The notes under the pieces were generated by a model. That model saw only the letters and a list, made by a program, of their open reading frames with translations. It had not been told where the DNA came from and made no database searches. Shown one piece after another: positions 7,606 through 53,499 of a stretch of DNA of 64,000 nucleotides. The stretch's first letter is position 1. Each line of letters starts with the position of its first letter. The stretch covers positions 1,558-65,557 of the forward strand of contig CACWIW010000028.1 of assembly GCA_902761035.1 (NCBI GenBank). The letters run 5' to 3'. The translations under genes were made by a program, and so were the position numbers. Source of the stretch: an uncultured bacterium (GTDB taxonomy: Bacteria > Verrucomicrobiota > Kiritimatiellia > RFP12 > UBA1067).

Positions 7606-7611
7606 TAAGAT

Positions 7612-7678
7612 TTAGCCACAAAGAACGCAAAGGTCACAAAGACTTTGTGCTCTTTGTGTTCTTTGTGGCAAAAAAAAA
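7612..7678. repeat. Low-complexity hairpin repeat, family A (TTAGCCACAAAGAACGCAAAG...CTTTGTGTTCTTTGTGGCAAAAAAAA); possible bidirectional terminator after tyrS
   Basis: Arms 7615-7641 and 7643-7669 are complementary. The same motif recurs at 45357, 47091, 49757, 53019 and 53441. Confidence 0.7.
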
Positions 7679-8850: not shown

Positions 8851-10476
8851 CTACGCATCAGACCTTTCGCGGAGCAGTTCTTTGAACTTCAGGCCGAAGC
8901 GGCCGAGGTATTTCGAGAGGCGGTCAGAGTCGTTGCTCGACTTCTTCGCCTTACGCGACACGGCGAAGAGCTTCTTCGCGGCGTCGGCGGTGGATGACGA
9001 GGCGCGGCAAACGGCGACGACGTGCGCGAGTTGCGCAAGATCGAAGCTGTCGTACCGCGCGGCGTAGTCCTTGCCGAGGAGTGCTGCGAGGATGGCGTTG
9101 TTGTCCATAGCGTGCGCCGTATCGCGAGCGCCGCCCGACAACATTCGGGCGATTTCCTCTATGACGACGTCCTCGGTGATGCGTCCGCCATCGGAGAGCG
9201 TGGCCATGCGCACGACCATCGCGTTGAGGTCGCGGAAGTTGCCGTGCCAGGGCGTGGAGGGGGCGAGCGCGAACTTGAGGAAGCGGGTGCGCGCCTCCTT
9301 GCTGAACGACACGTGCTTGCTCGTCCGCTGCGAATACTGCAGCAGCTCGTAGTCCAGGTTCGGCTCGATGTCCTCACGGCGTTCGGCGAGTCCGGGCATC
9401 TGGAAGCTCCAGAGGTCGATGCGGGCGAGGAGGTCGCGGCGGAACTTGCCGCTCGTCACGTCGTCCATGAGATTACGGTTCGTACCGCAGATGAGTTGGA
9501 AGTCGCTGTGTTCGTCCTTGGCGGCGCCGAGCGGACGGTAGGTCTTCTCCTCGATCGCCTTGAGGAGCATTGTCTGAGCCTCCATCGGCAGTTCGCCGAT
9601 CTCGTCGAGGAAGATGATGCCGCCGTCGGCCTCCTTGAGAAACCCGGCGTGATCGGCTCCGGCGCCGGAGAACGAACCTTTCTTGTGTCCGAAAAGGGCG
9701 GACTTCGCGAGGTCGCCGCCGAGCGTCGCGCAGTTGACGGCCACGAAGTCGCCCTTGACCTTGCCGGACTGCTTCTTGAGCAGGTAGATCTGCTTGGCGA
9801 GCTGGCTCTTGCCCGCGCCGGTGGGGCCGGTGAGCAGGATGGGGTCGGAGGAGCGCACGGACACGCGCTCGATCGTCTCGATGAGGTGGTTGAAGTCGGC
9901 GTTGCGCGTGGCGATGCCCTGCTTGAGGAAGGAGAGGTCCTTCTGTCGTTCGGTCTCGAAGCGCTTAGCGAGCACGTCGTAGCGCGAGAGGTCGAGGTCG
10001 ATCACGTTGATCGTGCCCTTGGGGTCGTTCGAGTGGCGGACGTGTCCCTCCTTCGGCGAGGACTGCACGATTTTCGCGTTGAGGTGGTGCGACTCGACGA
10101 GCAGGAAGAGACAGATCTTCTCCACGTGCGAACCGGTGGAGATGTGGATATAGTAGGAGGTCTTATCCTCGTGGAAGCATGGCGACTTGGAGTAGTCGTA
10201 GAACTTGGAGTACACCTCCTCGAAGTCCCAGGGGTCCTTTAGCTCGATGTTGTCCAACACGACCTTGGTTTCGGGTGAGACGCTTCGGATGTCGGCCTTG
10301 ATACGGTCGGCGAGGTCCTTGTACGCCTTGTTGTAGATGATGTGTAGTTCGTCGATTGGGAGCTCGTCCTGCTGGACGAGTCCGATTGTGGGGCGCCAGG
10401 TGTCCCAACGCGCCGCACCCGCGCCGCCGTGGGCATCCTTCTGAGTTCCGAGAACCGATATCGCTGTTGTTTTCAT
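8851..10476 (-). CDS. rtcR: Sigma-54-dependent activator RtcR (CARF-like N-domain + AAA+ domain)
   Basis: From MKTTAISVLGTQKD... onward. Walker A GPTGAGKS, GAFTGA-like FSGAGADHAGFL, FLDEIGEL. Length is similar to RtcR, and an rtcB relic lies divergently. Confidence 0.85.
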   Translation of the reverse strand: MKTTAISVLGTQKDAHGGAGAARWDTWRPTIGLVQQDELPIDELHIIYNKAYKDLADRIKADIRSVSPETKVVLDNIELKDPWDFEEVYSKFYDYSKSPCFHEDKTSYYIHISTGSHVEKICLFLLVESHHLNAKIVQSSPKEGHVRHSNDPKGTINVIDLDLSRYDVLAKRFETERQKDLSFLKQGIATRNADFNHLIETIERVSVRSSDPILLTGPTGAGKSQLAKQIYLLKKQSGKVKGDFVAVNCATLGGDLAKSALFGHKKGSFSGAGADHAGFLKEADGGIIFLDEIGELPMEAQTMLLKAIEEKTYRPLGAAKDEHSDFQLICGTNRNLMDDVTSGKFRRDLLARIDLWSFQMPGLAERREDIEPNLDYELLQYSQRTSKHVSFSKEARTRFLKFALAPSTPWHGNFRDLNAMVVRMATLSDGGRITEDVVIEEIARMLSGGARDTAHAMDNNAILAALLGKDYAARYDSFDLAQLAHVVAVCRASSSTADAAKKLFAVSRKAKKSSNDSDRLSKYLGRFGLKFKELLRERSDA

Positions 10477-10738
10477 GGTGCACAGTCTAACATATCCCAC
10501 GGCGGAATGATAGAAGAAAATATAGTGGCTATAATTTTTCATAATGGGCTGATGAGAGAAGAGTAAGGGTTGATATCTCACGCAGAGGCGCAGAGAGGCG
10601 GAGAGCGCAGAGGGCTCTTGAGTTAATCACTATTTTGGCATTTGAGGAAATTACAACACGATATAGCAAGGCCTCCTCGGCCCTGCCGCGAGGGTGTTGA
10701 CACCTTCCCCCTGCGAGAGATTCCTCTCCGCCACTGTC

Positions 10739-10755
10739 TTGGCACGATATCTGCT
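10739..10755 (+). promoter_or_regulatory. Sigma-54 (-24/-12) promoter TTGGCACGATATCTGCT
   Basis: GG and GC are 12 nt apart. Lies in the rtcR-divergent intergenic region, 28 nt upstream of the small ORF start. Confidence 0.6.
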
Positions 10756-10782
10756 CTACAAAAGGCACAAGGAGATTACACC

Positions 10783-10917
10783 ATGAAAAAGATGATCGAA
10801 AAAATCGTTGACGCCATCCTCGAACTCGTTGCCGGGTCGTTTGAAATCGGCCCCTGCAACCTCAAGGACGAGGAATTGTTCCCCGGTGCAGCCCGTCTGG
10901 GGGCCGCCGCCGGCTAG
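10783..10917 (+). CDS. Small ORF (44 aa) MKKMIEKIVDAILELVAGSFEIGPCNLKDEELFPGAARLGAAAG
   Basis: AAGGAG lies 7-8 nt upstream. It is the first ORF after the sigma-54 promoter and occupies the position where rtcB/rtcA normally begin. Confidence 0.4.
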   Translation: MKKMIEKIVDAILELVAGSFEIGPCNLKDEELFPGAARLGAAAG

Positions 10918-10922
10918 CAAAT

Positions 10923-11012
10923 AGGACAGAGGACGGAAGACAAAGGACAAAGGATTGTTGCTTCGCACATTCCAAAGTCCTAAGTCCTAAATCCTCTGTC
11001 CTCTGTCCTTTG
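10923..11012. repeat. Low-complexity hairpin repeat (GGACAGAGGACGGAAGACAAAGGACAAAGGAT ... ATCCTCTGTCCTCTGTCCTTTG)
   Basis: Complementary arms with ~7-nt internal periodicity, between the small ORF and the rtcB relic. Confidence 0.7.
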
Positions 11013-11032
11013 ACAGCAGGAAGATTACGAAA

Positions 11033-27506: not shown

Positions 27507-28898
27507 ATGAGATTTCTTTACAAAAAGTTCTTGTTGTTTCTTTTTATAATTCCCTGTGCCTGTGCCTTTGCTTTTAGTAATGAGTTTTCATGTATGGACG
27601 CACCTCGTGAATGGACGGATCATAAAGGGATTAAATTGACAGCTTCTTGGGAGCACGTTTCTCAAGATGGTACTGTCGTGTGGTTAGGAATCAAGGGGAA
27701 AAAAACTCTAAAGCTACCTGTGTCCCGTTTGTCAGCCACAGATCAGCTTTTTGTTTCAAGTTACATCGCGCGATTGAAAAGTCTGGGCTATGTTTGGAAT
27801 GACGGTGTTTGGATGTCGCCATCTTTAGTACGAGAAATTAATTATGTTAAGAGGGCCCGTTCTCTTGTACAGGAGAAATCTCCCCGAGATTTGATCTCTT
27901 TTCGTGTCGTTCAGGCTTTATCTTATGGTGCTTTGTGCCGCATTGGAGAAAAAAGCGCATATTCTGATACTATTTTTTACTCCGGACCTTTGTTTTACTG
28001 GAACGTTGGACAAAAGAACCTAGTTGCTAATGAAGAAATATATAAAAACAAGCAGCTATATTGGGCTGGAACTTACCAATATGAAACTGTTAAGGGTACT
28101 GTCAATACAGTTCTTTGGTATGTTGATGATTTCAACCGTGCCGTCTATCTCGTCCGTGGCAAATTCGGTTTCTTCGACAAGGGGGATTCTCGTTTCGTAG
28201 ACTTTGACGATTCTAATGCGCCTCCTTCAACATCAGGTTCTCCAGCTGAGAAACCGAAAGACGATGCTGTTGTTTCTGCTTACGGCTCAGGTTTCTTTAT
28301 TTCTACCAATGGGTTCTTAGTTACTAATCATCATGTTGTTGATGGTGGTAAAAGGTTTTCAATTCTTAGCGATTGTGGTGAATTCTCCGCTAAGCTTATC
28401 GCCAAGGATCCCAATACTGATCTTGCCGTTTTAAAAGTTGATGGATCATTCACTGCTCTGTCTCTGTCTTCTGACAAAAACGCACGTCTTGGACAGGACA
28501 TTTTCGTAATGGGTTTTCCTCGTCCTTCCGACCAAGGTTTCGCTCCTAAAGTCACCAAAGGTGTCATTAGCTCCTTAAAGGGTTTGCAGGATAATCCCAC
28601 TCGGTACCAAATTGATGCGAGTATACAACCGGGTAATTCTGGTGGCCCGGTTTGTGATGCCCATGGCAATCTTGTTGCTGTTGCCGTTTCAAGTTTGAGT
28701 GCAAAATACTTTTTGAAACACGAGGGATCCTTGCCCCAGAACGTCAACTATGCCATTAAGAAATCCTATCTCTTGGCATTCCTTGATTCAATTCCTGAAT
28801 TGGCAAACTGCCATCGTATCGCTCGTGCTGATTTCTCTCGATTTGAAGATGCTGTCGCTTTTGTTCAGAAATGTGTGGTTCTGATCAAAGTCTATTGA
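27507..28898 (+). CDS. Exported SHD1-domain / trypsin-like (S1) serine protease
   Basis: Signal/lipobox MRFLYKKFLLFLFIIPCACA. SHD1-like EWTDHKGIKLTASWEHVSQDGTVVWLGIKGKKTLKLPVSRLSATDQLFV. Catalytic triad context TNHHVV, TDLAVLKV, GNSGGPV. The gene is visibly AT-rich relative to its neighbours. Confidence 0.75.
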   Translation: MRFLYKKFLLFLFIIPCACAFAFSNEFSCMDAPREWTDHKGIKLTASWEHVSQDGTVVWLGIKGKKTLKLPVSRLSATDQLFVSSYIARLKSLGYVWNDGVWMSPSLVREINYVKRARSLVQEKSPRDLISFRVVQALSYGALCRIGEKSAYSDTIFYSGPLFYWNVGQKNLVANEEIYKNKQLYWAGTYQYETVKGTVNTVLWYVDDFNRAVYLVRGKFGFFDKGDSRFVDFDDSNAPPSTSGSPAEKPKDDAVVSAYGSGFFISTNGFLVTNHHVVDGGKRFSILSDCGEFSAKLIAKDPNTDLAVLKVDGSFTALSLSSDKNARLGQDIFVMGFPRPSDQGFAPKVTKGVISSLKGLQDNPTRYQIDASIQPGNSGGPVCDAHGNLVAVAVSSLSAKYFLKHEGSLPQNVNYAIKKSYLLAFLDSIPELANCHRIARADFSRFEDAVAFVQKCVVLIKVY

Positions 28899-29260: not shown

Positions 29261-29596
29261 TTACTTGGCATGCGCCAGTCGGTGCGGGGTGAGAGCAAGA
29301 GCGTGATCTTCGGGCCGTCGGGAACGTGCCTCCTTGAACGAGCCGAACGCCAAGTAGCCGATATATACGATGCCGACGGGCTGGATCGCCGTCATCACCG
29401 TCGGGTGGGACGTGAAGAACGAAGCGACCCCTGCCGCGAGAAGCCAGATCCACAGCCAGCAGCCAAGTACGAGCCCGGCCATCAGCGTGGAGGCGCGGGC
29501 CTTGCCGTCGGAAATGGCCGTGGCAAGCGTACACATCAAATCCGGTCCCGGCTTGATGATGAGCGCGATGTACCCGATGATGTAGGTTGTAATCAT
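29261..29596 (-). pseudogene. Truncated duplicate of the lysE 5' half
   Basis: 29327-29590 is near-identical to 26652-26912. After ~90 codons the frame diverges (ARSRRPEDHALALTPHRLAHAK). Confidence 0.8.
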
Positions 29597-31106: not shown

Positions 31107-31280
31107 ATGGCAACATCAAGCATAACAGCGAACTTTAGAATCGATGACCCGAAGGCCGCTAGGGATTTCGTGGAGGCGTTTATTCGGCATTCACACAATG
31201 CCCCGACGCCGCCATCGTCTAATTTTCGTTTCGTTACGACGGTTGAGGAGATGGAGGCATTGTCCCGAAAGGAGATTTGA
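31107..31280 (+). CDS. Small protein (57 aa), unknown function
   Basis: GAGGTGAGGA RBS. Its stop lies 1 nt before the Rpn-family gene ATG. Confidence 0.45.
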   Translation: MATSSITANFRIDDPKAARDFVEAFIRHSHNAPTPPSSNFRFVTTVEEMEALSRKEI

Positions 31281-31281
31281 C

Positions 31282-32181
31282 ATGGCAAAATACCTTGATC
31301 CAAAGGCGGACGTGACCTTCAAGAAGGTTTTCGGCGAGCACAAGAATCTCGTCATAAGTCTCCTCAACGCCTTGTTGCCCCTTGACGATGGTAAGAAGGT
31401 GGAGTCGATAGAATACATGACTCCGGAGATGGTGCCGGAGACGCCACTCGGCAAGAACTCCATTGTCGATGTTCGCTGCGAGGAGACGGGCGGTCGCAAG
31501 TTCATCGTCGAGATGCAGATGGAGTGGTTCCCCGATTTTATGCAGAGGGTGCTTCTCAATGCGTCAAAGGCGTACGTGAGACAGTTGCCGAAAGGCAACG
31601 ACTACAATCTGCTCCAGCCAGTCTATTCTCTTAGCCTGGTGAACCACACGTTTGAACCTGAATTGGACGGATATTACCACTACTACCATCTTGTGCACGA
31701 CCTTCACACAGAAAAGGTACTTGACGGACTACACCTCGTGTTTGTGGAACTCCCGAAGTTCAAGGCGAAGAACCTCACCGAGAAGAAGATGCAGGTTCTC
31801 TGGCTTCGCTTCCTGACGGAAATCGCCCCGGACGGAGCGGACGAGGTTTCGCAAGACCTTCTCGATAACCCGCAGACAGGGGAGGCTCTGGAGATAGTCA
31901 GGGAATCCGGGCTCAATGACGAGGAACGCGCCGCATACGAAGGCTTCTGGGATCGGGTCAGCATCGAGGCCACGAAAAAAGCCTACGTGGACAGGGCATT
32001 TGCGGAGCGCGACGCGGCAAATGCCAGGGCCGACGCGGCGAGCGCGCGAGCCGACGCGGCAATAGAGAAGATGCGGGAAGACAAGCTTCAGACAGCCCGC
32101 AACCTAAAGGCCATGAATCTTACCAACGAGCAGATTGCGGCGGCGACGGGTCTTACCGTTGACGAAATCGCCGCGCTCTAA
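31282..32181 (+). CDS. Rpn-family recombination-promoting nuclease / PD-(D/E)XK putative transposase
   Basis: MAKYLDPKADVTFKKVFGEHKNLVISLLNALLP...SIVDVRCEETGGRKFIVEMQ. Repetitive ARADAA tail. Confidence 0.75.
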   Translation: MAKYLDPKADVTFKKVFGEHKNLVISLLNALLPLDDGKKVESIEYMTPEMVPETPLGKNSIVDVRCEETGGRKFIVEMQMEWFPDFMQRVLLNASKAYVRQLPKGNDYNLLQPVYSLSLVNHTFEPELDGYYHYYHLVHDLHTEKVLDGLHLVFVELPKFKAKNLTEKKMQVLWLRFLTEIAPDGADEVSQDLLDNPQTGEALEIVRESGLNDEERAAYEGFWDRVSIEATKKAYVDRAFAERDAANARADAASARADAAIEKMREDKLQTARNLKAMNLTNEQIAAATGLTVDEIAAL

Positions 32182-32554
32182 CACCAATCTCAAATCGTGG
32201 AAACTGACAATGAAAGGACAAAGCCCATAGACAGTTAAAACGATAAGGCGGGGAGAAATCCGCCGACCTCCGCAAGGAGTTAAGACAATTTAGCATCAAC
32301 GCTAACAAGTCGTTCCCCTGAAATACTGGTAATATTTCTTGTTGCTAACATCCAAATGTGGATGGGTAGTGATTTCTTGAACGACATGTGAGTGGAGGTG
32401 CGCCCATACAGGGGCGCATTCTCTTTCTCCATGTATTCAAGAAAAGCCGTTACCAGGGCTTCAGGGGAGTGTATGGAAAAGAAAATGCGCTCCCTTTTTC
32501 TGCATCTGACACGGTGTCCGACGATGTAGCGAGCGCGATTGACGATGCGCTCTT

Positions 32555-33625
32555 ATGGGCAACAAGAAAGACTATAAACCTACAGTTATTGACCTGTTCT
32601 GCGGAGCAGGAGGGTTATCGTGTGGGTTTGAACGAGCAGGATATCAGATTCTGCTTGGCATAGATTCCGATGCCAAGGCACTTGAAACATTTGAATTGAA
32701 TCACAATGGCACACGCTCCATCTGCGGCGACATAACGAAGATCAAGTATGAAAACGACATCAAGCCGTTGATCGAATGCAAGGCCATCGATGTGATTATC
32801 GGAGGTCCACCTTGTCAAGGCATGTCTCTTTCCGGCCCACGAAAGTTTGACGATCCGAGAAACAGGCTCTATCTGTCATATATTCGGTTGGTGTCGGAAA
32901 TTCGGCCAAAGGCATTTGTAATTGAGAACGTACCCGGACTTGTGTCCCTGTTTGGAGGGAAGATAAAAGACAGAATAATTGAAAAGCTGCAAAAGCTTGG
33001 GTATCACATAAAGTTCAAGGTCCTCTCATCAGACGACTATGGCGTTCCTCAGCATCGTCGGCGTGTCGTTTTCGTTGGCGTAAGAAACGACATGGGATGC
33101 GAGTTTGAATATCCTCCGCCATCCCCACACATAGTAACATGCCGAATGGCTCTATCTGATTTGCCGCCTCTTAAATCATCCACGGGACTTGACGTGATGG
33201 ATTATACGTCAAACCCGCAGAATGATTTCCAGAGGACGATGCGTGAGCATTCCATGGCAGTACGAAACCATGTTGCCGCACACCACTCAAGACATGTACA
33301 GGACATTATCGCGCTTGTGCCAGATGGCGGCAACTACAAGGATCTGCCAGATGAGTTCAAGAACAGCCGTAACTTTCATGTCGCATGGACACGGTTTGCC
33401 GCCGATAAACCCGCCCCGACTATCGACACGGGCCATCGGCATCATTTCCATTACTGCTACAATCGCGTCCCTACAGTTCGGGAATGCGCACGACTACAGT
33501 CATTCCCAGACGACTTCCTGTTCCTTGGCAACAAAACACAACAGTTCAGGCAGGTAGGAAATGCTGTGCCGCCTCTGATGGCACAGGCTATAGCAAATCA
33601 ACTTCTCAAAGTTCTGGAGAATTAA
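32555..33625 (+). CDS. DNA (cytosine-5)-methyltransferase, M1
   Basis: Motif I DLFCGAGGLS, IV GGPPCQGMS, VI ENV, VIII QHRRRVVFVG, X GNAVPP. Confidence 0.9.
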   Translation: MGNKKDYKPTVIDLFCGAGGLSCGFERAGYQILLGIDSDAKALETFELNHNGTRSICGDITKIKYENDIKPLIECKAIDVIIGGPPCQGMSLSGPRKFDDPRNRLYLSYIRLVSEIRPKAFVIENVPGLVSLFGGKIKDRIIEKLQKLGYHIKFKVLSSDDYGVPQHRRRVVFVGVRNDMGCEFEYPPPSPHIVTCRMALSDLPPLKSSTGLDVMDYTSNPQNDFQRTMREHSMAVRNHVAAHHSRHVQDIIALVPDGGNYKDLPDEFKNSRNFHVAWTRFAADKPAPTIDTGHRHHFHYCYNRVPTVRECARLQSFPDDFLFLGNKTQQFRQVGNAVPPLMAQAIANQLLKVLEN

Positions 33626-35071
33626 ATGAAAAGCATCTACAAGACACCACCGGAGTTTTTCAAGCCGCTTCATCATGTTCGCCCAAGGTTTAAAGATGAC
33701 CTTGAAGGCGTTCTACTTCATTTTGCCGATTCTGTTTCTCGAATAGGACAATGTGGGAAGCGAGTATTCAATCAAAAGTTGGACAGCTGCTTAAGTGAGT
33801 ATCCTGGAAATGCAACAAAGACAAAAAAGACCATTTCAAACTGGCGAACTGAAATAGCGGCACTGTTCTCTCTTGTCATGCATGGAGACGATATGTTTTC
33901 ACCAAGCCGACGCTGCATGGAACTTGCACAAGGGCGCGATTTACCTGAGGCGTTCAGGAAGTTTCTCTACACGTTCCAATATCCTGGCGGGCATTTGCGT
34001 CCCGACTATTCTGCCGAACTCATACAGGCAGGGGTAAGGTTCAAACCCGTGCAAACAATATTGCGGGTATTCAAGGCTGGCAACAAGACTGGAGGCAATT
34101 CGTTCTGTTTGTCTCGAGGCGAGGTTTGCCATTGCATATGTAACGATCTTCGTGTCACCCGCGACAATGAAGATGCGGAAACAACCTTACGGAGAATTGT
34201 GGAGAACAGGCAGAACAGTCGTAAGTATATTGAAGATGGAGACGTTATAAGATATGCCGGAGATATTCTTGACTACATGCAGATAGCGGGGCTTCTAAAG
34301 ACGCATAACGGAAGGGATTTCTACGTGAATTCTGCCTCGAACGGCATAATCTTGAAGTATCTTTCTTCAAATGACAGATTCGAGGGCTACGATGATTTGT
34401 ATACGAAGAGCATCGTCATGGCATCAGATGTTGAGGCACGGCAGCAGAAATGGGAAGACTATGCCAATCGAGAAATGCCCGACAAATACTTTTCCATTGA
34501 TATCTCAAAGCTTCTTGGTGCTGAATCGAGCGCGGCCAAGACTCTTGAGCAAGTCAGCGAACTTTACAAGTCACTTGAACAGCCGCAAGGTCAAGGGAAG
34601 TCGGAAATGACGACAGGCGACATCGGAGAACGAGGAGAAGCGCTTGTCTATGGGCATGAATGCATGAGATTGAAGAATGACGGAAGAGAGGACTTGATTC
34701 ATCTTGTCAAACGCATACCGACATCTTTTGCCCTTGGTTTTGACATATCCTCTGTGGAAAGCGATACGGAGCAGAAACGATACATTGAGGTCAAGTCAAC
34801 GGCTAGTTTCAAGCCGATACTTTTCAACTCAGTCCATCTTACGCCAAATGAATGGCGAGTGGCGGAAACGGAACGGAGCAGATACTACGTCTATCGTCTT
34901 TTTCTTTGTATAAGTACTGGTGAGGCTAAACTGTATATGCTTCAGGATCCAGTCGGGAAGTACAAGACTGACAAGATAACAATGATGCCATCATCTGCTG
35001 GCGGAGTTGATGTTCGATTCGACAGCAAGAAAGTCGGACAATTTGAGGAACTGTTGAAATGGAACGATTGA
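33626..35071 (+). CDS. Putative restriction endonuclease: unknown N-terminal domain + DUF3883-type PD-(D/E)XK C-terminal domain
   Basis: C-terminus GERGEALVYGHE...GFDISSVESDTEQKRYIEVKST...LTPNEWRVAE...YYVYRL. Abuts M1 (TAAATG) and overlaps M2 by 13 nt. Confidence 0.6.
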   Translation: MKSIYKTPPEFFKPLHHVRPRFKDDLEGVLLHFADSVSRIGQCGKRVFNQKLDSCLSEYPGNATKTKKTISNWRTEIAALFSLVMHGDDMFSPSRRCMELAQGRDLPEAFRKFLYTFQYPGGHLRPDYSAELIQAGVRFKPVQTILRVFKAGNKTGGNSFCLSRGEVCHCICNDLRVTRDNEDAETTLRRIVENRQNSRKYIEDGDVIRYAGDILDYMQIAGLLKTHNGRDFYVNSASNGIILKYLSSNDRFEGYDDLYTKSIVMASDVEARQQKWEDYANREMPDKYFSIDISKLLGAESSAAKTLEQVSELYKSLEQPQGQGKSEMTTGDIGERGEALVYGHECMRLKNDGREDLIHLVKRIPTSFALGFDISSVESDTEQKRYIEVKSTASFKPILFNSVHLTPNEWRVAETERSRYYVYRLFLCISTGEAKLYMLQDPVGKYKTDKITMMPSSAGGVDVRFDSKKVGQFEELLKWND

Positions 35072-36051
35072 GGGTTGCATCATTGTTTGCCGGATGTGGC
35101 GGTACTGATGTAGGTGTACGGGGTGACTTCGCTTTTTGCGGGCGCAAGTATGCGGCTTTACCCACGCGACTCGTCTATGCCAATGATTTTGAGCCGTCAG
35201 CTTGCGACATGTTCGACAGAAACTTTCGCATAAAGATTGATCGAACGGACATACGGCAAGTGGACGTAAGCAATGTGCCGCAATATGACTTCCTGACGGC
35301 TGGATTCCCTTGCCAGAGCTTCTCGGTTGTGGCACAAAACCCTCCTCGCCTCGGAATAAAGGACAGCGATAAAGGAACGCTATTTGAAGAGGTATGCCGG
35401 TTTCTTAAGGCACATAAACCGATGGGGTTCTTATGTGAAAATGTAAAGGGGATATTGTCCGCCAATCATGGAACTGCGTTCCCGATAATCATGCGTTCTT
35501 TGCGAGACTGCGGATACTATGTCATGCACATGTTGCTAAACGCTCGGTTTTACGGTGTGCCGCAACGAAGGGAACGAGTATTTATCGTCGGTTTCAGGGA
35601 TGCGGCTCTGTTGGATGCGTACAGACAGCCAATGCCAGTAACGCACAACGCAACATTGGGAGAGGTTATTGCTCTAGAAAATACTGTTCCTGATAAATAC
35701 TATTTCAGCGAGAGGGCTGTCGCTGGAATGAGGGCGGCAAAGCCGGAAATGAACAAAGGGCGTATACAGAACCTGGACGAACCATGCAATACAGTTGGAG
35801 CACATCTTTGCAAGATGAGTTTGAATGGAACAGATCCTGTTCTCTGCATCAATGGGAGATATAGGAGATTTATGCCAAGTGAAGTGGCAAGAATTCAGTC
35901 TTTCCCAGATAACTATGAACTGGTTGGCTCAGAACGTGCGCAGTATAAGGCACTTGGCAATGCGATTCCACCGGTTTTGGCTTGGCATGTCATGAAGTCT
36001 GTGTGCGATGCTTTTACACTTAAGTCTTCTACCTACCATAAAACCTCGTAA
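35059..36051 (+). CDS. DNA (cytosine-5)-methyltransferase, M2
   Basis: Motif I LFAGCGGTDVG, IV AGFPCQSFS, VI ENVKG, VIII QRRERVFIVG, X GNAIPP. Confidence 0.9.
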   Translation: MERLRVASLFAGCGGTDVGVRGDFAFCGRKYAALPTRLVYANDFEPSACDMFDRNFRIKIDRTDIRQVDVSNVPQYDFLTAGFPCQSFSVVAQNPPRLGIKDSDKGTLFEEVCRFLKAHKPMGFLCENVKGILSANHGTAFPIIMRSLRDCGYYVMHMLLNARFYGVPQRRERVFIVGFRDAALLDAYRQPMPVTHNATLGEVIALENTVPDKYYFSERAVAGMRAAKPEMNKGRIQNLDEPCNTVGAHLCKMSLNGTDPVLCINGRYRRFMPSEVARIQSFPDNYELVGSERAQYKALGNAIPPVLAWHVMKSVCDAFTLKSSTYHKTS

Positions 36052-44129: not shown

Positions 44130-44203
44130 TTGTCCATGTAGAACATGCATAACATCTAAATCATCTGTATGTTTTGCATGTTCTACCTGTTCTACATGGA
44201 CAA
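44130..44203. repeat. Low-complexity hairpin repeat, family B (CATGTAGAACATG type)
   Basis: Arms 44130-44149 and 44175-44203 are complementary. Lies between pdxT and pdxS. The same motif occurs inside purF. Confidence 0.7.
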
Positions 44204-45225: not shown

Positions 45226-45356
45226 TATAAGGTATATGCTGTGGCAAAGGGTAATTGGAAATTCCCCTTATTATCTGATAGGCAAAACCTATATCGCCCA
45301 CCACCTCAACCTTATGAGTTAACCTAAAAACCGCAGTTAAACAACCTCTTCTTATT

Positions 45357-45389
45357 TTAGCCGCAAAGAACGCAAAGAACACAAAGAGG
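45357..45389. repeat. Family A repeat arm (TTAGCCGCAAAGAACGCAAAGAACACAAAGAGG)
   Basis: Pairs with 47091-47120 across the IS element. Confidence 0.7.
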
Positions 45390-45452
45390 GGATGTGTTTC
45401 TTGATTATACATGTCGCTCTTTCTGCACGACAATTTACCCAATAGGTGAAAC

Positions 45453-47028
45453 CCACTACCATCCCACTCCTCAAAGAAGTGAGTTCATAATGCTTAGGAA
45501 TTCGTGTTTCAGCCTGTGTTCTTCGGTATAACGATGCGTTATTCTTACTCCCGTTTTTCATCACGCCGTCAAAAAGCCCCGAAAACGCGGGCTTTTCTAC
45601 CCGTGCTGTCCCATTGGCCCGGCGTCGAACGGAAGAAAAGCCTGCAAATACAGGGGTTTGGCGACCTCCACCACGCGGATTCCGCCACATGCTGTCCCAT
45701 TCGCCCCGAAGGATTCGAGCAGCTGCACGACGTTGCGCCGCAGCCACGCGCACGACCGCACCACGCCCGCGAGCCGCGAGAAGCTGTGCCTCCATTTCGA
45801 GACGTGCCGGAGATACCTCAGGAGCATGTGCACCAGCAGCCCCGTCCAGACCTGCCACTTGACCGCGTTCTCGTTGTAGCCGATGAAGTCGCGGATCTGG
45901 CAGGTCTGCTTGAGCTCCTTGAAGAACGTCTCGATCCCCCAACGCGCCCTGTACAGCTCCGCTATCGTCCGTGCGCTCCACTCCATGTTGTTCGTGAGGA
46001 AGGACATTTCGAGCATCTTGCCGTCGTACTCCACCTCCGCCGTGACGCAGCGGAGAACTCCGCCGTCGCAAGCGTAGGACTTCGCCGTCCCCGGCATGGC
46101 CGGCTTCACGACCTCGTCCCTCAGGACGCGGACTTTCGACTCGGTGCGCTTCCCGGCCTCGGGCTTCTCGGCGGGGCGCGAGGAAACCGTCTCCAGCTTG
46201 ATGTTCCTCTTCCATCTCACGACGTAGAACACGCCGCGCATGGCAAGCGAGCACAGGAACCTGAAGTCGGTGTACGCCCTGTCCGCCACGAGGACGTCCC
46301 CGCACTTCAGGCTCGCGGTCGTCGCCTCCGCCCTCGCGGAATCGTGGTGCGATGCCTCCTCCACGATGGCGAAGGACGGAAGACGGTTGCCGAGGTCGAG
46401 GTCCATGTGGAGCTTCGCCGCGGCCTTCCGCCTCCTGTGCCGCGCCCAGTCGAAGCAGTTGAGCGTCAGCTTGATCGTGGAGGAGTCGAGGGCGTGTATG
46501 GCCCGCTCTTTGAATCGGGAAAGGAATCCCCTGTACTTGCACGACGCGAAGCCTGGGCAAATCCCCTTGAGAAAGTCGAACATCCGCCAGAACACGAGCT
46601 CGGCCATCTTCGGATTGCGCCTGCGGTTGGCGTTCGAGAATGTGTTGCGGTGCGGGATCTGCGCACCGCGCATTCGTCCCCACTCGCTCTTGAACGCCGT
46701 GGCCGCGTCGCACACGCCGTTCAGGGACTCCGTCCTCGTGAGCTGCTGGTAGATCAGCGCCAGAAGGTGGCTCCACGGGGTGAACGTCCGCGAGAGCGTC
46801 TTGGTCTCCGTTGCCGCATCGAGCACGATTTGCGGGGGTATCAGTTTGACTACCTGCTTCCAGATAGTGTATACTGTCTTCGTTGCCGCCGGTGGCGGGA
46901 ATATTAGTTTTTTCATGATTCCTGTATTCTACAGGAACTCGTCGCCGGCGGCAACCCTCTGCATTTAAATCCACGGCCAACCTCCGGCAAAAATTCGCCA
47001 TGCGGTCACATCAATGGGATGGTAGTGG
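45453..47028 (-). mobile_element. IS4-family insertion sequence (1576 bp) with 14-bp perfect terminal inverted repeats and a 7-bp target-site duplication
   Basis: Left end CCACTACCATCCCA (45453-45466), right end TGGGATGGTAGTGG (47015-47028). GTGAAAC is duplicated at 45446-45452 and 47029-47035. Confidence 0.85.
45597..46916 (-). CDS. IS4-family DDE transposase
   Basis: 439 aa. HALDSSTIKL, VLVADRAYTDF, YRARWGIETFFKELKQ. Confidence 0.9.
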   Translation of the reverse strand: MKKLIFPPPAATKTVYTIWKQVVKLIPPQIVLDAATETKTLSRTFTPWSHLLALIYQQLTRTESLNGVCDAATAFKSEWGRMRGAQIPHRNTFSNANRRRNPKMAELVFWRMFDFLKGICPGFASCKYRGFLSRFKERAIHALDSSTIKLTLNCFDWARHRRRKAAAKLHMDLDLGNRLPSFAIVEEASHHDSARAEATTASLKCGDVLVADRAYTDFRFLCSLAMRGVFYVVRWKRNIKLETVSSRPAEKPEAGKRTESKVRVLRDEVVKPAMPGTAKSYACDGGVLRCVTAEVEYDGKMLEMSFLTNNMEWSARTIAELYRARWGIETFFKELKQTCQIRDFIGYNENAVKWQVWTGLLVHMLLRYLRHVSKWRHSFSRLAGVVRSCAWLRRNVVQLLESFGANGTACGGIRVVEVAKPLYLQAFLPFDAGPMGQHG

Positions 47029-47090
47029 GTGAAACCAAAGATTTTAAGATGAAGCTTAACAATTCCTGATACAACTTTCATTATAATAAA

Positions 47091-47120
47091 CTTTGCGATC
47101 TCTGCGCTCTTTGCGGCTAA
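47091..47120. repeat. Family A repeat arm (inverted partner of 45357-45389)
   Basis: CTTTGCGATCTCTGCGCTCTTTGCGGCTAA. Confidence 0.7.
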
Positions 47121-47304
47121 ATACTAGAATCCAACTGTAACGTTTAGGGTAAATTGCAAAATCCTGTCGGAAGAAAGATTTGTCAATGTAGAATATGTGT
47201 TATATGCATGGATGTGTAAGGCGTGTGAAAAAGTTTTTACACAGCATGTAAGGGCTTGGGGTTTTTATTACCATCTACCATCTACTAACTACCAACTTTG
47301 CGCG

Positions 47305-47361: not shown

Positions 47362-49473
47362 ATGACGGAAGAGACAAAGAACGCAACGCACTTCGGCGAA
47401 GACGTATTCGGCGACGAGGCGATCAGAACCTACTTGAGCAAGGACACGGCGAAGAAACTCCAGGCCACGATCCAGGAAGGCAAACCGCTCGACCCGTCCA
47501 TCGCGGGCGAGGTGGCACACGGCATCCGCCACTGGGCAATGGACCGCGGCGCGACGCATTACACGCACTGGTTCCTGCCGATGACGGGCTCCACCGCCGA
47601 GAAACACGATTCATTCCTTGAGATCAAGGACGGCGAGCCGATCATGCTCTTCTCCGGAAAGAACCTCATCGTGGGCGAGCCGGACGCCTCGTCGTTTCCG
47701 TCCGGCGGCATCCGTTCCACCTTCGAGGCGCGCGGCTACACGGCGTGGGATCCGACTTCTCCTGCCTTCATCAAGCGCCACTCGAACGGTGCGACGCTCT
47801 GCATCCCGACGGCGTTCTGCGCCTACACGGGCGAGGCGCTCGACAAGAAGACTCCGCTTCTCCGCTCCATGCAGGCGCTCGACAAATCCCTCACCCGCCT
47901 CATGAAGCTCTTCGGCCGTTCCGAGGCGCATACCGGCTGCACGCTCGGAGCAGAGCAGGAATACTTCCTCATCGACAAGGAGTATTGGAAGAAGCGCCCC
48001 GACCTCGTGCTGACCGGTCGCACACTCTTCGGTGCGCCGTCCGCGAAGGGACAGCAGCTCGAGGACCACTACTTCGGCACGATCCCCGACCGCGTGCTTT
48101 CCTTCATGAACGACGTCGAGCGTGAGCTGTGGAAGCTCGGCATTCCCGCGAAGACGCGTCACAACGAAGTTGCGCCCGCGCAGTTCGAGCTCGCGCCGCA
48201 GTTCGAGGAGCTGAACCTCGCGAGCGACCACAACATGCTCGTGATGGATACGCTCCGCAACGTTGCCGAGAAGCATGGCTTCAAGTGCCTCCTCCACGAG
48301 AAACCCTACGCGGGCGTGAACGGTTCCGGCAAGCACAACAACTGGTCCGTGAACTACGGCGGCAAGAACCTGCTTGACCCCGGTACCGACCCGCACGAGA
48401 ACGCGCTCTTCCTTACGGTGCTCTGCGCGATCATCGAGGCAGTGGACAAGCACGCCGACCTTCTGCGCGCCTCCGTGGCAGGCGCAGGCAACGACCACCG
48501 TCTCGGCGCGAACGAGGCACCGCCCGCCGTCATCTCCATCTACCTCGGCGACCAGCTCGCGGAGGTCATCGACCGCCTGGAGAAGGGCGAGGGCGGCAAG
48601 ACGAAGAAGGCGGGCACGCTGAAGATCGGCGTGGACACGCTTCCCGCGCTTCCGAAGGATGCGACCGATCGCAACCGTACATCGCCGTTCGCGTTCACGG
48701 GCAACAAGTTCGAGTTCCGCGCGCCCGGGTCGAGCGTGTGCTGTTCGGGTCCGATGACGGTCCTCAACACCATCGTCGCCGAGGCCGTGGACCGCATCGC
48801 GGGCGAGTTGGAGAAAGCGAAGGTTGCCGGCAAGGCGAAGCCCGGCGAGCACACGCCCGCCTTCCACAACGCGTTGCAGAAGATACTCCAGGAATCCCTC
48901 AAGGCGCACAAGCGCGTCGTCTTCAACGGCAACGGCTACGAGGCCGAGTGGCCGCTGGAGGCCGAACGCCGGGGACTTCCCAACGCACCCGACACGCCGT
49001 CCGCCCTCACCGCCCTCACGAAGAAGGAGAACGCAAAGCTCTTTGAGAAATACGGCGTGATGACGGCGCGCGAGCTGGAGAGCCGCCACGAAATCTTCCT
49101 CGAGGAATACGCGAAGAAGGTGCGCATCGAGGGCGCGTGCGCGCGTGACATTGCAAGCGAGATGATCCTCCCCGCCGTGAAGGGCGAATATCTGGAGACG
49201 ATCCAGGCGTTTGCGAAGGCGGAGAGCGTGGGCGTCTCCTCCGGCACGAGTGCGCTGCGCGAAAGCGCCGTGGAAATCGGCACCGGACTGGATGCGCTCA
49301 AGACCGGCATCAAGAAGCTCGACGAGGCGTTGTCCGCCGCAACGCCGTCCGCCGAAGCGGAGATCCTTTCGGCGATGCAGGCTCTGCGCACGACAGTCGA
49401 TGCGCTTGAAAAGCGCGTATCCGCCGCACGCTGGCCATTGCCCAAGTACCGCGACATGTTGTTTCTGTATTAG
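47362..49473 (+). CDS. glnN: Glutamine synthetase type III
   Basis: ~700 aa from MTEETKNATHFGEDVF. GSIII-type length and blocks (HNEVAPAQFE, NGSGKHNNWS, NRTSPFAFTGNKFEFR). Confidence 0.9.
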   Translation: MTEETKNATHFGEDVFGDEAIRTYLSKDTAKKLQATIQEGKPLDPSIAGEVAHGIRHWAMDRGATHYTHWFLPMTGSTAEKHDSFLEIKDGEPIMLFSGKNLIVGEPDASSFPSGGIRSTFEARGYTAWDPTSPAFIKRHSNGATLCIPTAFCAYTGEALDKKTPLLRSMQALDKSLTRLMKLFGRSEAHTGCTLGAEQEYFLIDKEYWKKRPDLVLTGRTLFGAPSAKGQQLEDHYFGTIPDRVLSFMNDVERELWKLGIPAKTRHNEVAPAQFELAPQFEELNLASDHNMLVMDTLRNVAEKHGFKCLLHEKPYAGVNGSGKHNNWSVNYGGKNLLDPGTDPHENALFLTVLCAIIEAVDKHADLLRASVAGAGNDHRLGANEAPPAVISIYLGDQLAEVIDRLEKGEGGKTKKAGTLKIGVDTLPALPKDATDRNRTSPFAFTGNKFEFRAPGSSVCCSGPMTVLNTIVAEAVDRIAGELEKAKVAGKAKPGEHTPAFHNALQKILQESLKAHKRVVFNGNGYEAEWPLEAERRGLPNAPDTPSALTALTKKENAKLFEKYGVMTARELESRHEIFLEEYAKKVRIEGACARDIASEMILPAVKGEYLETIQAFAKAESVGVSSGTSALRESAVEIGTGLDALKTGIKKLDEALSAATPSAEAEILSAMQALRTTVDALEKRVSAARWPLPKYRDMLFLY

Positions 49474-49491
49474 TGGCTAGTGGTTAGTGGC

Positions 49492-51558
49492 ATGTCGGAT
49501 GAACTGAAACATGAATGTGCGGTGGCGATGGTTGTCTTGCGGCGGTCACGGGGCGACCGCCCTACCTCCGATTTTGGCGGGACGAAGCTCTCCCTTCTTC
49601 TGGAGAAGCAGCACAACAGGGGCCAGGACGGGGCGGGCGCGGCGATCCTTCGCGCCCGCCCCGTCCCCGGCGAGGTGCCGTACTGGATCGCCAAGTCCGC
49701 TTCCTCGACGCCCCTCGTGGATGTGCTTGGCGCGATTGCGAAACGCTCTGATTCATTTAGCCACAAAGAACGCAAAGAGCACAAAGAAGAAGAGGAAGAA
49801 CTTTGTGATCTTTGTGATCTTTGTGGCGAAAAACAAGAAAGGATTTTCCTCGGGCATCTGCGCTACGCCACCTTCGGGAAGAACGAGGTGGCGTTTTGCC
49901 ACCCGTTCGTGCATGAGGCGAGCGAACTGGAGCACACGCTCCTTCTCGCCGGCAATTTCAACCTCACGAACGCCCATGAACTTTTCGAGGATTACAGCCG
50001 ACACGGGTCCTTCCCCACAAGCAAGTCCGACGGCTACCTCGTCTGCGAACTGATCGCCCACGAACTCGGGAAAGATTTTAGCCGTGTAGAACGTGTAGAT
50101 CATGTAGAATTAACACCCCCAAAACTACATGTTTCTACATGTTCTACACGGTTCAAAAATATCTCGCGCGCTTTATCCACCGCTCTTGCCAATGCGGACG
50201 GTGCGTGGACGCTTTGCGGCGCGACGGGGGATGGCTGGGCGTTCTCCACGCGCGATCCGCATGGCATCCGCCCCGGCTTCTACTACATCAGCGACGATGT
50301 GGTGTCCGTGGCGAGCGAACGCCCCGCCATTCAGGCCGCCTTCGACGTGCCGCCCGAAGCCGTGAAAGAGTTGCCACCCGGCCAGGCACTCATCATCTCT
50401 CCTGTTGGCGAAGTGAGGTTAGTAGATTTAGACATTCGACATTCGACAACCAACAACCGCTCTAGGGCGGCGACTGTCGAACGTGCATCTGCCACTCCAT
50501 CCACTTCCCGCCCCTGCTCCTTCGAGCGCATCTACTTCTCTCGCGCCAACGACGCCGCGATCCACCGCGAGCGCAAGGCCCTCGGCGCGGCACTCCTGCC
50601 GCAAATCCTCCAATCGGCTGAAGCCGATCTCTCTGACATCTTCTTCAGCTACATCCCCAACTCAGCCCGCATCGCCTTCCATGGATTGTTGGAAAGAATA
50701 TTTCATCTTATTTCACGCAGAGGCGCAGAGAGGCAGAGGTGCGGAGACTTTACAGAATTTTCTCAGCGCCTCAGCCTCTCAGCGCCTCTGCGTGATATGA
50801 TCCCCCGCTTCGGGGAGGTCATCGTGAAGGACGCGAAGTTCCGCACGTTCATCGCCGATGCCGCCGCCCGCCGCGAGTTCTACAAGCACGTCTATGACGT
50901 CACCTACGGACTCGTGCGTCCCGGTCTCGATACGCTTGTCGTCCTCGACGATTCCATCGTGCGCGGCAACACGATGAAAAACGCCATTCTCCCGATGCTC
51001 GACCGGCTGGAACCGAAACGTATCGTCATCGCCTCCTCCGCGCCGCCCATCCGCTACCCCGACTGCTACGGCATCGACATGTCCACCCTCGGCGAACTCG
51101 TTGCCTTCCGCGCCCTCGTGAACCTGTTGGATGGGGAACGGGGAATGGGGAACGGGGAACGGGAATTAATCGACGCACTCAATGAATCCAAACAACTACA
51201 TGTTTCTACATGTTCAACACGGACAAAATCCTGCAACCCGCTCGCTCCCCTCTATGCTCGCTTCACCGACGAGCAACATTGCGCCGAGATCGCCCGCCTC
51301 CTCACCCCGCCCGGCATGAAGGCCGAGGTGAAGGTGGTTTACCAGACGGTGAAAAATCTACGGAAATGCCTTGGAAAAACGACATTCGACAATCGGCAAC
51401 TGACATCCGGGACGATAGTCCGACAGACGACACATGACGCGAGCGTATGCATCGGAGATTGGTACTTCACCGGCGACTATCCCACGCCCGGTGGCTACAA
51501 GGTGCTGTACAAGGCTCTTGGAAACTACTTAGAGCAGAAAAACGAAAGGTCTTACTGA
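49492..51558 (+). CDS. purF: Amidophosphoribosyltransferase, long form, carrying several in-frame hairpin-repeat insertions
   Basis: KHECAV, LLEKQHNRGQDGAG, GHLRYATFG, RDPHGIRPGFYY, PCSFERIYFSR, VVLDDSIVRGNTMKN, GDWYFTGDYPTPGG, all in one frame. Confidence 0.8.
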   Translation: MSDELKHECAVAMVVLRRSRGDRPTSDFGGTKLSLLLEKQHNRGQDGAGAAILRARPVPGEVPYWIAKSASSTPLVDVLGAIAKRSDSFSHKERKEHKEEEEELCDLCDLCGEKQERIFLGHLRYATFGKNEVAFCHPFVHEASELEHTLLLAGNFNLTNAHELFEDYSRHGSFPTSKSDGYLVCELIAHELGKDFSRVERVDHVELTPPKLHVSTCSTRFKNISRALSTALANADGAWTLCGATGDGWAFSTRDPHGIRPGFYYISDDVVSVASERPAIQAAFDVPPEAVKELPPGQALIISPVGEVRLVDLDIRHSTTNNRSRAATVERASATPSTSRPCSFERIYFSRANDAAIHRERKALGAALLPQILQSAEADLSDIFFSYIPNSARIAFHGLLERIFHLISRRGAERQRCGDFTEFSQRLSLSAPLRDMIPRFGEVIVKDAKFRTFIADAAARREFYKHVYDVTYGLVRPGLDTLVVLDDSIVRGNTMKNAILPMLDRLEPKRIVIASSAPPIRYPDCYGIDMSTLGELVAFRALVNLLDGERGMGNGERELIDALNESKQLHVSTCSTRTKSCNPLAPLYARFTDEQHCAEIARLLTPPGMKAEVKVVYQTVKNLRKCLGKTTFDNRQLTSGTIVRQTTHDASVCIGDWYFTGDYPTPGGYKVLYKALGNYLEQKNERSY
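49757..49827. repeat. Family A hairpin inside the purF coding frame
   Basis: TTAGCCACAAAGAACGCAAAGAGCACAAAGA...CTTTGTGATCTTTGTGATCTTTGTGGC, translated as FSHKERKEHKEEEEELCDLCDLCG. Confidence 0.8.
50081..50151. repeat. Family B hairpin inside the purF coding frame
   Basis: GCCGTGTAGAACGTGTAGATCATGTAG...CTACATGTTTCTACATGTTCTACACGG (~26-bp arms), translated as SRVERVDHVELTPPKLHVSTCSTR. Confidence 0.8.
50713..50795. repeat. Family C hairpin (TCACGCAGAGGCGCAGAGAGG type) inside the purF coding frame
   Basis: Arms 50713-50739 and 50769-50795. The same arm occurs intergenically at 10577-10613. Confidence 0.8.
51133..51167. repeat. Heptamer tandem repeat GGGGAAC/GGGGAAT inside the purF coding frame
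   Basis: ggggaacggggaatggggaacggggaacgggaatt. A single family B arm follows at 51196-51222. Confidence 0.75.
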
Positions 51559-53012: not shown

Positions 53013-53018
53013 GATGAT

Positions 53019-53474
53019 TTAGCCGCAAAGAACGCAAAGAGCGCAAAGATAGAAAGAATCATGACGGAAGAAGAGGATAAAGGACTCTGTGACAGAATCA
53101 GGCAAGTCGCTTACGATCTGCATGAGTATCTTGGGACAGGGTATTTGGAAAAGGTTTATGAAAATGCATTGGTTCACCGTTTGCAACTCGCTGGAATGAG
53201 TGTTACAACACAAGTTCCAATAACCATAAAAGACCAAGACGGTTTTGTTATCGGTGAGTATGTTGCAGACATGGTCGTGAATGGTCTTGTGATTGAGTTG
53301 AAGGCGGTTTCAACTTTGTTGCCGGCTCATGTTGCACAAACGATAAACTATCTTAAAGCAATGCGCATAGAACATGGTATGCTGATAAATTTTGGCTCGG
53401 AGCGATTTCAGTGTAGAAAACTAGCGAAGCGTAATTGATTTTTTGCGATCTTTGCGTTCTTTGCGGCAAAAAAG
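53019..53474. repeat. Cassette: GxxExxY gene bracketed by family A inverted repeats (53019-53052 / 53441-53474)
   Basis: TTAGCCGCAAAGAACGCAAAGAGCGCAAAGATAG ... TTTTGCGATCTTTGCGTTCTTTGCGGCAAAAAAG. Confidence 0.8.
53061..53438 (+). CDS. GxxExxY-family protein (PD-(D/E)XK-like; the family often encoded in 23S rRNA intervening sequences)
   Basis: 125 aa. LGTGYLEKVYENAL (GxxExxY), ADMVVNGLVIELKAV, INYLKA. Confidence 0.85.
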   Translation: MTEEEDKGLCDRIRQVAYDLHEYLGTGYLEKVYENALVHRLQLAGMSVTTQVPITIKDQDGFVIGEYVADMVVNGLVIELKAVSTLLPAHVAQTINYLKAMRIEHGMLINFGSERFQCRKLAKRN

Positions 53475-53499
53475 TTAAACGACAAGAGAGTAGGTAAAA

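Follow-up and report, generated by a model that had tools for sequence, protein, structure and literature searches.

Repeat families in frame at six sites of purF in an uncultured Kiritimatiellia bacterium, a behaviour resembling that of Rickettsia palindromic elements

Rickettsia palindromic elements (RPEs), repeats of ~100-150 bp (PMC10969869), lie between genes and also in frame within unrelated housekeeping genes, where they are translated (Ogata et al., 2000 Science, as recounted in PMC10969869). Here we analyse repeats of similar behaviour in purF, the gene for amidophosphoribosyltransferase, on a 64,000-nt stretch of DNA from an uncultured bacterium (Kiritimatiellia; RFP12; UBA1067), which we call the window (assembly GCA_902761035.1, contig CACWIW010000028.1, positions 1,558-65,557 of the forward strand; purF coordinates and other bare positions are in window numbering). 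Other small repeats offer partial parallels. [quoted passage not shown] PARCELs, dyad-symmetric repeats of coding DNA that spread from one ORF to another, form 25-residue domains in tandem within surface or membrane proteins of unknown function. Cyanobacterial heptamer repeats (short tandemly repeated repetitive sequences, STRR) and small dispersed repeats, reportedly described by Elhai and colleagues in 2008, are said to comprise heptanucleotide arrays and hairpins that nest in one another without target duplication.

The window purF contains six variable segments made up of repeats of families A, B and C, which have intergenic copies elsewhere in the window, and of related heptamer arrays (Table 1). 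These inserts are probably translated, selection-filtered copies of selfish repeats, and their closest known counterpart is the RPEs, of whose behaviour they represent a further form in a new phylum. Like RPEs, they are multi-copy palindromes that occur between genes and in frame in housekeeping genes, where they encode extra peptides predicted to be compatible with the fold; the likeness is one of behaviour, and sequence homology to RPE-1 to RPE-10 is not expected. The suggestion, in an earlier note on this DNA, that such behaviour had not been described therefore does not stand, since RPEs do likewise (PMC10969869). In contrast to RPEs, the repeats of this lineage are shorter (~55-110 nt) and belong to at least ten families, most of them palindromes with arms of tandem 7-10-nt units and a few of them plain heptamer arrays, which here vie for six loops of a single enzyme; copies are nested or reduced to remnants, and alleles turn over between close strains. 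Moreover, they are found in a free-living, high-GC gut bacterium from a different phylum, whereas Rickettsia has a reduced intracellular genome.

The ORF encodes an intact long-form PurF. As called mechanically on the plus strand it spans 49480-51558, begins at a GTG and runs for the 692 uninterrupted codons that the earlier note had reported; ATG 49492 is the likely start, judging from the peptide MSDELKHEC that it opens and that is found in all orthologues. Three TAGTGGC heptamers (49471-49491) extend across the glnA3 stop codon and the gap before the purF ATG, and the mechanical GTG start falls within them. A sequence search against structures matched Escherichia coli and Bacillus subtilis PurF at E ~1e-17, Pfam GATase_6 matched the protein, and a Foldseek search with the predicted model matched 1ecf, 1ao0 and 6lbp with TM(target) of 0.74-0.80. 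The match to NCBIfam purF (E 4.8e-29, 102 bits) does not reach the curated cut-off of 350 bits. The Cys9 nucleophile and the DDSIVRGNT phosphoribosyl pyrophosphate (PRPP) loop are unchanged throughout two protein alignments, and the protein has what defines a PurF: an N-terminal-nucleophile Cys, a class II glutamine amidotransferase, a phosphoribosyltransferase with its PRPP loop, and the PurF fold. The closest genomes are metagenome-assembled genomes of uncultured rumen Kiritimatiellae. A protein identical to the window PurF is encoded on three contigs, which rules out an assembly artefact.

The six segments, of 81-108 nt each, have a GC content of 38-53%, compared with ~55-75% for the conserved blocks and 59% for the window. 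Repeats were detected by blastn-short and hairpin scans, an 11-mer census having been discarded as too noisy in GC-rich coding DNA; they lie in purF where the earlier note had placed them, and the odd peptides that they encode are exactly those quoted there. In the family A hairpin of site 1, the 31-nt arms are 87% complementary and both consist of 9-nt units, CACAAAGAA and CTTTGTGAT. The family B hairpin of site 2 has 9-nt units CGTGTAGAA and CTACATGTT and outer ends TTTTAGCC...GGTTCAAAA, and the family C hairpin of site 4 has 38-nt arms with 8-nt units CGCAGAGG and CTCAGCGC. The lone family B arm of site 5 is 97% identical to 50123-50151 in site 2. The idea that six to seven sites form hairpins held only in part. 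RNA folding gave -35.8 kcal/mol (z -5.2) for site 1, -42.6 kcal/mol (z -9.5) for site 2 and -64.7 kcal/mol (z -12.7) for site 4, with none of 200 shuffles folding equally well in any of the three; site 3 folds weakly (z -2.45), and sites 5 and 6 form no hairpin (z +0.86 and +1.5). Four core segments, folded as controls, ranged from z -2.9 to +0.9. A group II intron or known RNA family was rejected, as no Rfam family matches the inserts, and so was an intein, the inserts being too short and devoid of the motifs.

Table 1. purF, its six variable segments and copies of the same repeat families elsewhere in the window.
Feature	Position	Strand	Remarks
purF, long-form amidophosphoribosyltransferase	49492..51558	+	688 aa from ATG 49492
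Site 1 variable segment (SDSFSHKERKEHKEEEEELCDLCDLCGEKQE)	49747..49839	+	contains family A hairpin 49756-49831
Site 2 variable segment (GKDFSRVERVDHVELTPPKLHVSTCSTRFKN)	50068..50160	+	contains family B hairpin 50077-50160
Site 3 variable segment (RLVDLDIRHSTTNNRSRAATVERASATPSTS)	50416..50508	+	GACATTC heptamers 50431-50448 and degenerate right arm; weak hairpin
Site 4 variable segment (RIFHLISRRGAERQRCGDFTEFSQRLSLSAPLRDMI)	50695..50802	+	contains family C hairpin 50710-50798
Site 5 variable segment (LDGERGMGNGERELIDALNESKQLHVSTCSTRTKSC)	51127..51234	+	GGGGAAC x4.4 at 51133-51163 and lone family B right arm 51194-51222; no hairpin
Site 6 variable segment (LGKTTFDNRQLTSGTIVRQTTHDASVC)	51370..51450	+	decayed GACATTC-type heptamer array from 51381; no hairpin
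Family A hairpin, intergenic	7611..7673		6 nt past tyrS stop codon
Family C arm, intergenic	10575..10612		adjoins rtcR; 22/22 nt match at 10578-10599
Family B-type hairpin (CATGTAGAAC units), intergenic	44130..44203		
Family A hairpin split by IS4 element	45356..47122		arms 45356-45387 and 47091-47122
Family A hairpin around small ORF	53017..53475		arms 53017-53049 and 53439-53475

Comparison with related proteins indicates that the segments are insertions. In the repeat-poor Kiritimatiellae L008 and L010-L013, PurF has 547-560 aa and the loops at the six sites have 4-23 residues, mostly 4-14, from which we estimate ~140 extra residues in the window PurF. The possibility that repeat-free relatives might have equally long, similar sequences at these sites was thereby checked and not borne out. 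Nearly all of 120 L013-clade matches are 547 aa long (range 545-555) and nearly all of 120 diverse Bacteroidota matches 630-635 aa (four at 641-673), whereas the 120 closest matches to the window PurF vary from 613 to 744 aa with nearly invariant conserved blocks; the length variation is specific to the lineage of the window. At four of the six sites (1, 2, 4 and 5), the long-form PurF of Bacteroidota possesses extra segments of its own, so that these positions are naturally length-tolerant. Empty alleles occur among close orthologues at all six sites, consistent with the earlier placing of the insertions in variable loops: they have 5-6 aa at site 1, 13-16 aa at site 2 (40 aa in the window), 12-14 aa at site 3 (32 aa in the window) and 8-12 aa at site 4, and at site 6, where L084 has the allele LGSDA, the window differs from it by a clean insertion of 66 nt.

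The predicted structure agrees with this placement. In an AlphaFold model (mean pLDDT 75.7, pTM 0.78), residues 90-113, 201-215, 317-335, 419-429, 573-579 and 631-650 have pLDDT below 50 and fall within sites 1 to 6, respectively; a single further internal stretch below 50, at residues 452-456, lies outside them. The inserts thus coincide with low-confidence stretches that interrupt a confidently modelled core, where they are predicted to leave the PurF fold undisturbed. The alignment behind this model also took in Bacteroidota and L013-clade sequences; with 18 close orthologues only, pLDDT was 31.

No insertion breaks the reading frame. All 29 Kiritimatiellae purF DNA copies are in frame, with insert lengths that are multiples of three, and open to the conserved C-terminus ...ERSY followed by the stop codon. 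At site 5 of L083 the GGGGAAC array is expanded by 15 nt (7+8) and not by 14, which keeps the frame. The elements are not inherently open: stops occur in 40 of the 54 alternative frames of 27 distinct genic hairpins and in 15 of 21 frames of intergenic hairpins, so the genic copies are a filtered subset. Within purF, the frame in which the GACATTC unit is read differs between site 3 and site 6, and family A is read in more than one frame across different genes. Between the window and L082, the purF core diverges by 2.5% at codon positions 1 and 2 compared with 15.5% at four-fold sites and is therefore under purifying selection. These data argue that the inserts are neither cut out nor bypassed, because nothing would otherwise keep them stop-free and in multiples of three.

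The content of each site turns over between close strains. Among 120 orthologues, every purF site shows several unrelated peptides, deletion remnants or nothing, with occupancy ranging from 75/120 (site 3) to 118/120 (site 1). The same peptides recur at different sites: TSDFGHQTS...EVRSPKSEV at sites 1, 2, 4 and 6, TGLTGL...NPVNLVNPV at sites 1, 4 and 5, HVERVDHVE...LHVSTCSTR at sites 2, 3 and 5, and HKERKE...LCDLCG at sites 1 and 4. In the window, L082 and L083, with purF cores of 93-96% DNA identity, sites 1, 2, 3 and 6 carry either the same element or a wholly different one in a mosaic pattern. Site 1 of L092 compared with L003 reveals a clean 48-nt insertion nested inside the arm of a common element; site 4 of L003, 210 nt long, is a composite in which two more pieces nest in the loop of a family C hairpin; and L086, L084 and L092 have single-arm deletion remnants. 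No target-site duplication was found at two clean junctions (the 48-nt insertion of L092/L003 at site 1 and the 66-nt insertion of window/L084 at site 6), most filled/empty junctions being too diverged for this to be judged.

The repeats also enter other genes. In L082 (10384-13496) and L083 (9364-10716), carA (427-450 aa) and pyrG (590 aa) contain the purF repeat families in frame, with inserts such as KKLCDLCDLCGK, GHKERKDRKE and LTQRHRDTE...SLSLCVKK, and in these contigs a family C copy forms a C-terminal extension, LISRRDAERQRTQRKR, that ends in a stop codon. When 251 kb of Kiritimatiellae loci were scanned for hairpins, 45 were counted within genes, 10 between genes and 11 at gene edges, some GC-rich stems among them being perhaps native. 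From such comparisons it appears that repeats move, or are placed INDEPENDENTLY. In intergenic DNA of the window, one family A hairpin surrounds a PDDEXK_3/GxxExxY ORF and another is split by an IS4 element (transposase gene at 45597-46916, minus strand) with inverted repeats of its own, GGTGAAACCCACTACCATCCCA, near 45445 and 47012; hairpin interiors therefore seem to be favoured or safe landing places.

We favour the following account. The repeats would spread without creating a target-site duplication, hairpin- or single-strand-dependent transposition and template switching or recombination being candidate mechanisms. Any insertion that broke the frame, introduced a stop or struck the folded core would kill an essential enzyme and be lost, leaving as survivors in-frame copies in loops; these would be transcribed and translated as extra loop peptides with which PurF still works. 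Nesting, palindrome-stimulated deletion and recombination between strains would then make the six loops hypervariable. The repeats would be selfish DNA, and no benefit to the host is required.

Several points weigh against this account. Translation of the inserts is a step that we infer from conservation of the frame, and transposition is likewise presumed, neither element ends nor a target-site duplication having been seen at the clean junctions; ectopic recombination or template switching could yield an identical pattern. No transposase or other mobilising enzyme could be linked to the repeats, the sole transposase nearby being that of an IS4 element with unrelated ends, and Pfam scans of most window ORFs revealed no Y1/RAYT-type gene. 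Chimeras of metagenome assembly could inflate the apparent mosaicism. The frames used show no significant excess of hydrophilicity over the open alternatives (p = 0.13). Finally, inserts shared by the window and L082 have diverged less than the third codon positions flanking them locally (9/396 versus 41/320, p = 3e-8), which is not predicted for plain neutral junk. This difference is clear only for that pair and weaker in others; local flanks were used since a gene-wide comparison with four-fold sites is confounded by recombination mosaics, which account for part of the low divergence of the inserts.

Among other explanations, removal of the inserts at the level of the RNA or the ribosome, by RNase III-type excision or translational bypass, would give a mature protein without them. 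The three very stable hairpins, of 20-35 bp, do resemble RNase III substrates and bypass hairpins, and the family A hairpin at 53017-53475 encloses a small ORF, a stem-plus-small-ORF layout like that of rRNA intervening sequences. The earlier note had entertained removal at the RNA level, but removal by either route is very improbable given that the 29 DNA copies and ~120 protein alleles are all in frame and open, that the heptamer expansion was corrected to +15 nt, that two of the six inserts have no hairpin and that none matches an Rfam family; bypass, moreover, requires an in-frame stop after the take-off codon, of which there is none, and cleavage by RNase III without ligation would destroy the mRNA. 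If the segments were instead fast-evolving native low-complexity linkers, with intergenic copies that resemble them by coincidence or derive from them, the native segments of Bacteroidota PurF at sites 1, 2, 4 and 5 would fit, the loops being naturally variable. Yet unrelated peptides alternate at one site while the conserved blocks hardly change, identical DNA families recur at different sites, within other genes and intergenically, the inserts stand out in GC content from a gene of ~60%, some filled and empty junctions are clean, and PurF length is nearly invariant in Bacteroidota and the L013 clade; this explanation is already largely refuted, and we give it next to no credence. Equally hard to credit is that this purF is a decaying pseudogene whose function another purF supplies. 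Only 64 kb of the genome are visible and a second purF, of the short form, might lie elsewhere, but the ORF is intact in all relatives, non-synonymous divergence of the core is well below synonymous divergence, the catalytic residues are invariant, carA and pyrG bear similar inserts, and purF adjoins glnA3 in the related contigs L081-L083 as well.

The main rival as regards the spread of the repeats is that they are made and exchanged locally by repair: palindromes would arise in place as snap-back or template-switch synthesis on short tandem repeats mends a double-strand break in a loop, and the cassettes would then be swapped by gene conversion from copies elsewhere in the genome and by recombination between strains. 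The lack of target-site duplication at the two clean junctions, arms consisting of tandem sub-repeats, the coexistence of heptamer arrays with palindromes, the low divergence of shared inserts and the mosaic sharing of alleles among the window, L082 and L083 all accord with it. So does covariation between family A arms. When copies of this family were compared (window 7615, 45360/47117, 49760 and 53022/53467, plus L082 and L089), A-U had changed to G-C at three compensatory pairs, and 16 of 500 shuffles reached the observed score; stem positions 11 and 20, at a 9-nt spacing, are mismatched in most or all copies. Covariation and low insert divergence together suggest correction between arms or copies, or a constraint on the hairpin. 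What speaks against local repair is that one family with constant outer ends (TTTAGCC...GGCnAAAA) occurs at many unlinked places, for which a template elsewhere is needed. We consider an origin by repair and gene conversion unlikely, although present data do not separate it mechanistically from transposition without target-site duplication.

A bolder interpretation, which is tentative and rather doubtful, is that the hairpins, with their arms of tandem sub-repeats, form a hitherto unrecognised class of hairpin-targeting mobile DNA that inserts without target duplication, preferentially in the loops of earlier hairpins, is mobilised by a small nuclease and is protected from decay by correction between arms or copies, the loops of PurF, carA and pyrG serving as landing pads. 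The nuclease may be a protein such as the 125-aa PDDEXK_3/GxxExxY product (PF13366, E 5e-31; TIGR04256, E 7e-33) of the ORF at 53061-53438, which is bracketed by family A arms and is a candidate for a mobilising or hitch-hiking gene of the repeats. Across the loci examined, no PDDEXK_3 gene other than the window copy lies inside a hairpin, nor do hairpin arms flank the small DUF3791/DUF3990 genes that lie downstream of purF in L082. If hairpin targeting were true, self-perpetuating landing pads would be continually remodelling the surfaces of essential enzymes across the whole lineage.

The inserts also differ from the other known systems. As for MITEs, the two clean junctions have no target-site duplication, the inverted repeats of IS4, the only insertion sequence (IS) in the window, are unrelated and this IS itself interrupts a family A hairpin, and the whole element is a hairpin instead of a core between terminal inverted repeats; as regards target-site duplication at these junctions and a parent IS within the window, the elements do not behave as MITEs. 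Like REPs and REPINs, the repeats are short hairpins of several families, and family B units contain GTAG, but families A and C are without it and most families have neither a GTAG nor a CGTC tag, many copies here are genic, the arms are tandem sub-repeats and the Pfam-scanned ORFs, most of those in the window, include no RAYT gene. A bypass element was rejected because in each of the 29 DNA copies the inserts are open and have lengths divisible by three, so that none need be skipped. PARCELs are not single loop insertions in conserved enzymes, nor do they also occur as intergenic hairpins. The cyanobacterial repeats belong to another phylum and have other sequences, and we know of no description of their systematic in-frame occupation of loops in essential enzymes.

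Frequent in-frame selfish DNA in housekeeping genes has hitherto been seen mainly as a peculiarity of Rickettsia; Rickettsia-like behaviour is now found in an abundant, uncultured, high-GC rumen lineage, with more families and at six loops of one essential enzyme. Hundreds of natural purF alleles are already present in metagenomes, and they amount to a natural experiment on which loops of PurF, carA and pyrG tolerate 20-50 extra residues. They also offer a route to studying the movement of small hairpin repeats for which no transposase is in evidence. The inserts are a warning for annotation, as PurF scores far under the NCBIfam cut-off and varies from 613 to 744 aa, and for strain-level binning and structure prediction, the shallow insert-rich alignment having given a useless model.

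Elsewhere in the window, intergenic copies of family A match by blastn-short at 7610-7675, 45356-45387, 47091-47122, 53017-53049 and 53439-53475 (E 1e-7 to 7e-6). A scan of viral contigs with a family A arm yielded two intergenic copies and was uninformative. purF is the sole native gene of the 64 kb in which families A-C were found, and a scan for AT-rich islands within the genes of the window revealed no cluster other than purF. It is flanked on one side by a type III glutamine synthetase gene and on the other by one for a GFO/IDH/MocA oxidoreductase. Between genes at 25100-25146, a half-arm similar to family A (CAAAGGCAAACGCAAAGGTCGCAAAG) directly adjoins a GGGAATT x4 heptamer array, which mirrors the heptamer-plus-arm build of purF site 5.

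Larger repeats are present too. The 16-nt palindrome TGACACCTAGGTGTCA recurs with a spacing of 23 nt in arrays at 2088-2209 and 24929-25096, which make up 91-nt inverted repeats, 88% complementary, around 22.8 kb with genes for glycoside hydrolases, tyrS, rtcR/rtcB, arginase and IpgD/CesT-like proteins; the bracketed segment could be invertible or mobile. A 260-nt direct repeat, 96% identical (26642-26901 and 29328-29587), duplicates the 5' part of a LysE-family gene and flanks a trypsin-like peptidase gene (27468-28898), so that this region looks like an insertion with a long duplication.

Within the bracketed segment, rtcR, which encodes a sigma-54 activator, adjoins a 103-aa rtcB ORF that matches only the first 36 positions of the profile (8851-11344), and hairpin repeats lie between the two genes (10575-10612 and 10923-11009); the arrangement may represent an operon for RNA repair that has been disrupted. 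At 16214-18955, the gene for an IpgD-like inositol phosphatase homologue (E 7e-47) precedes that for a CesT-family chaperone, a pair like a type III effector and its chaperone and unexpected in Kiritimatiellae. Finally, a low-GC island (GC content at third codon positions ~0.5) at 31144-36051 encodes a PDDEXK_2 (Rpn-like) nuclease/transposase, two C5 cytosine methyltransferases and a BpuJI-like restriction endonuclease.

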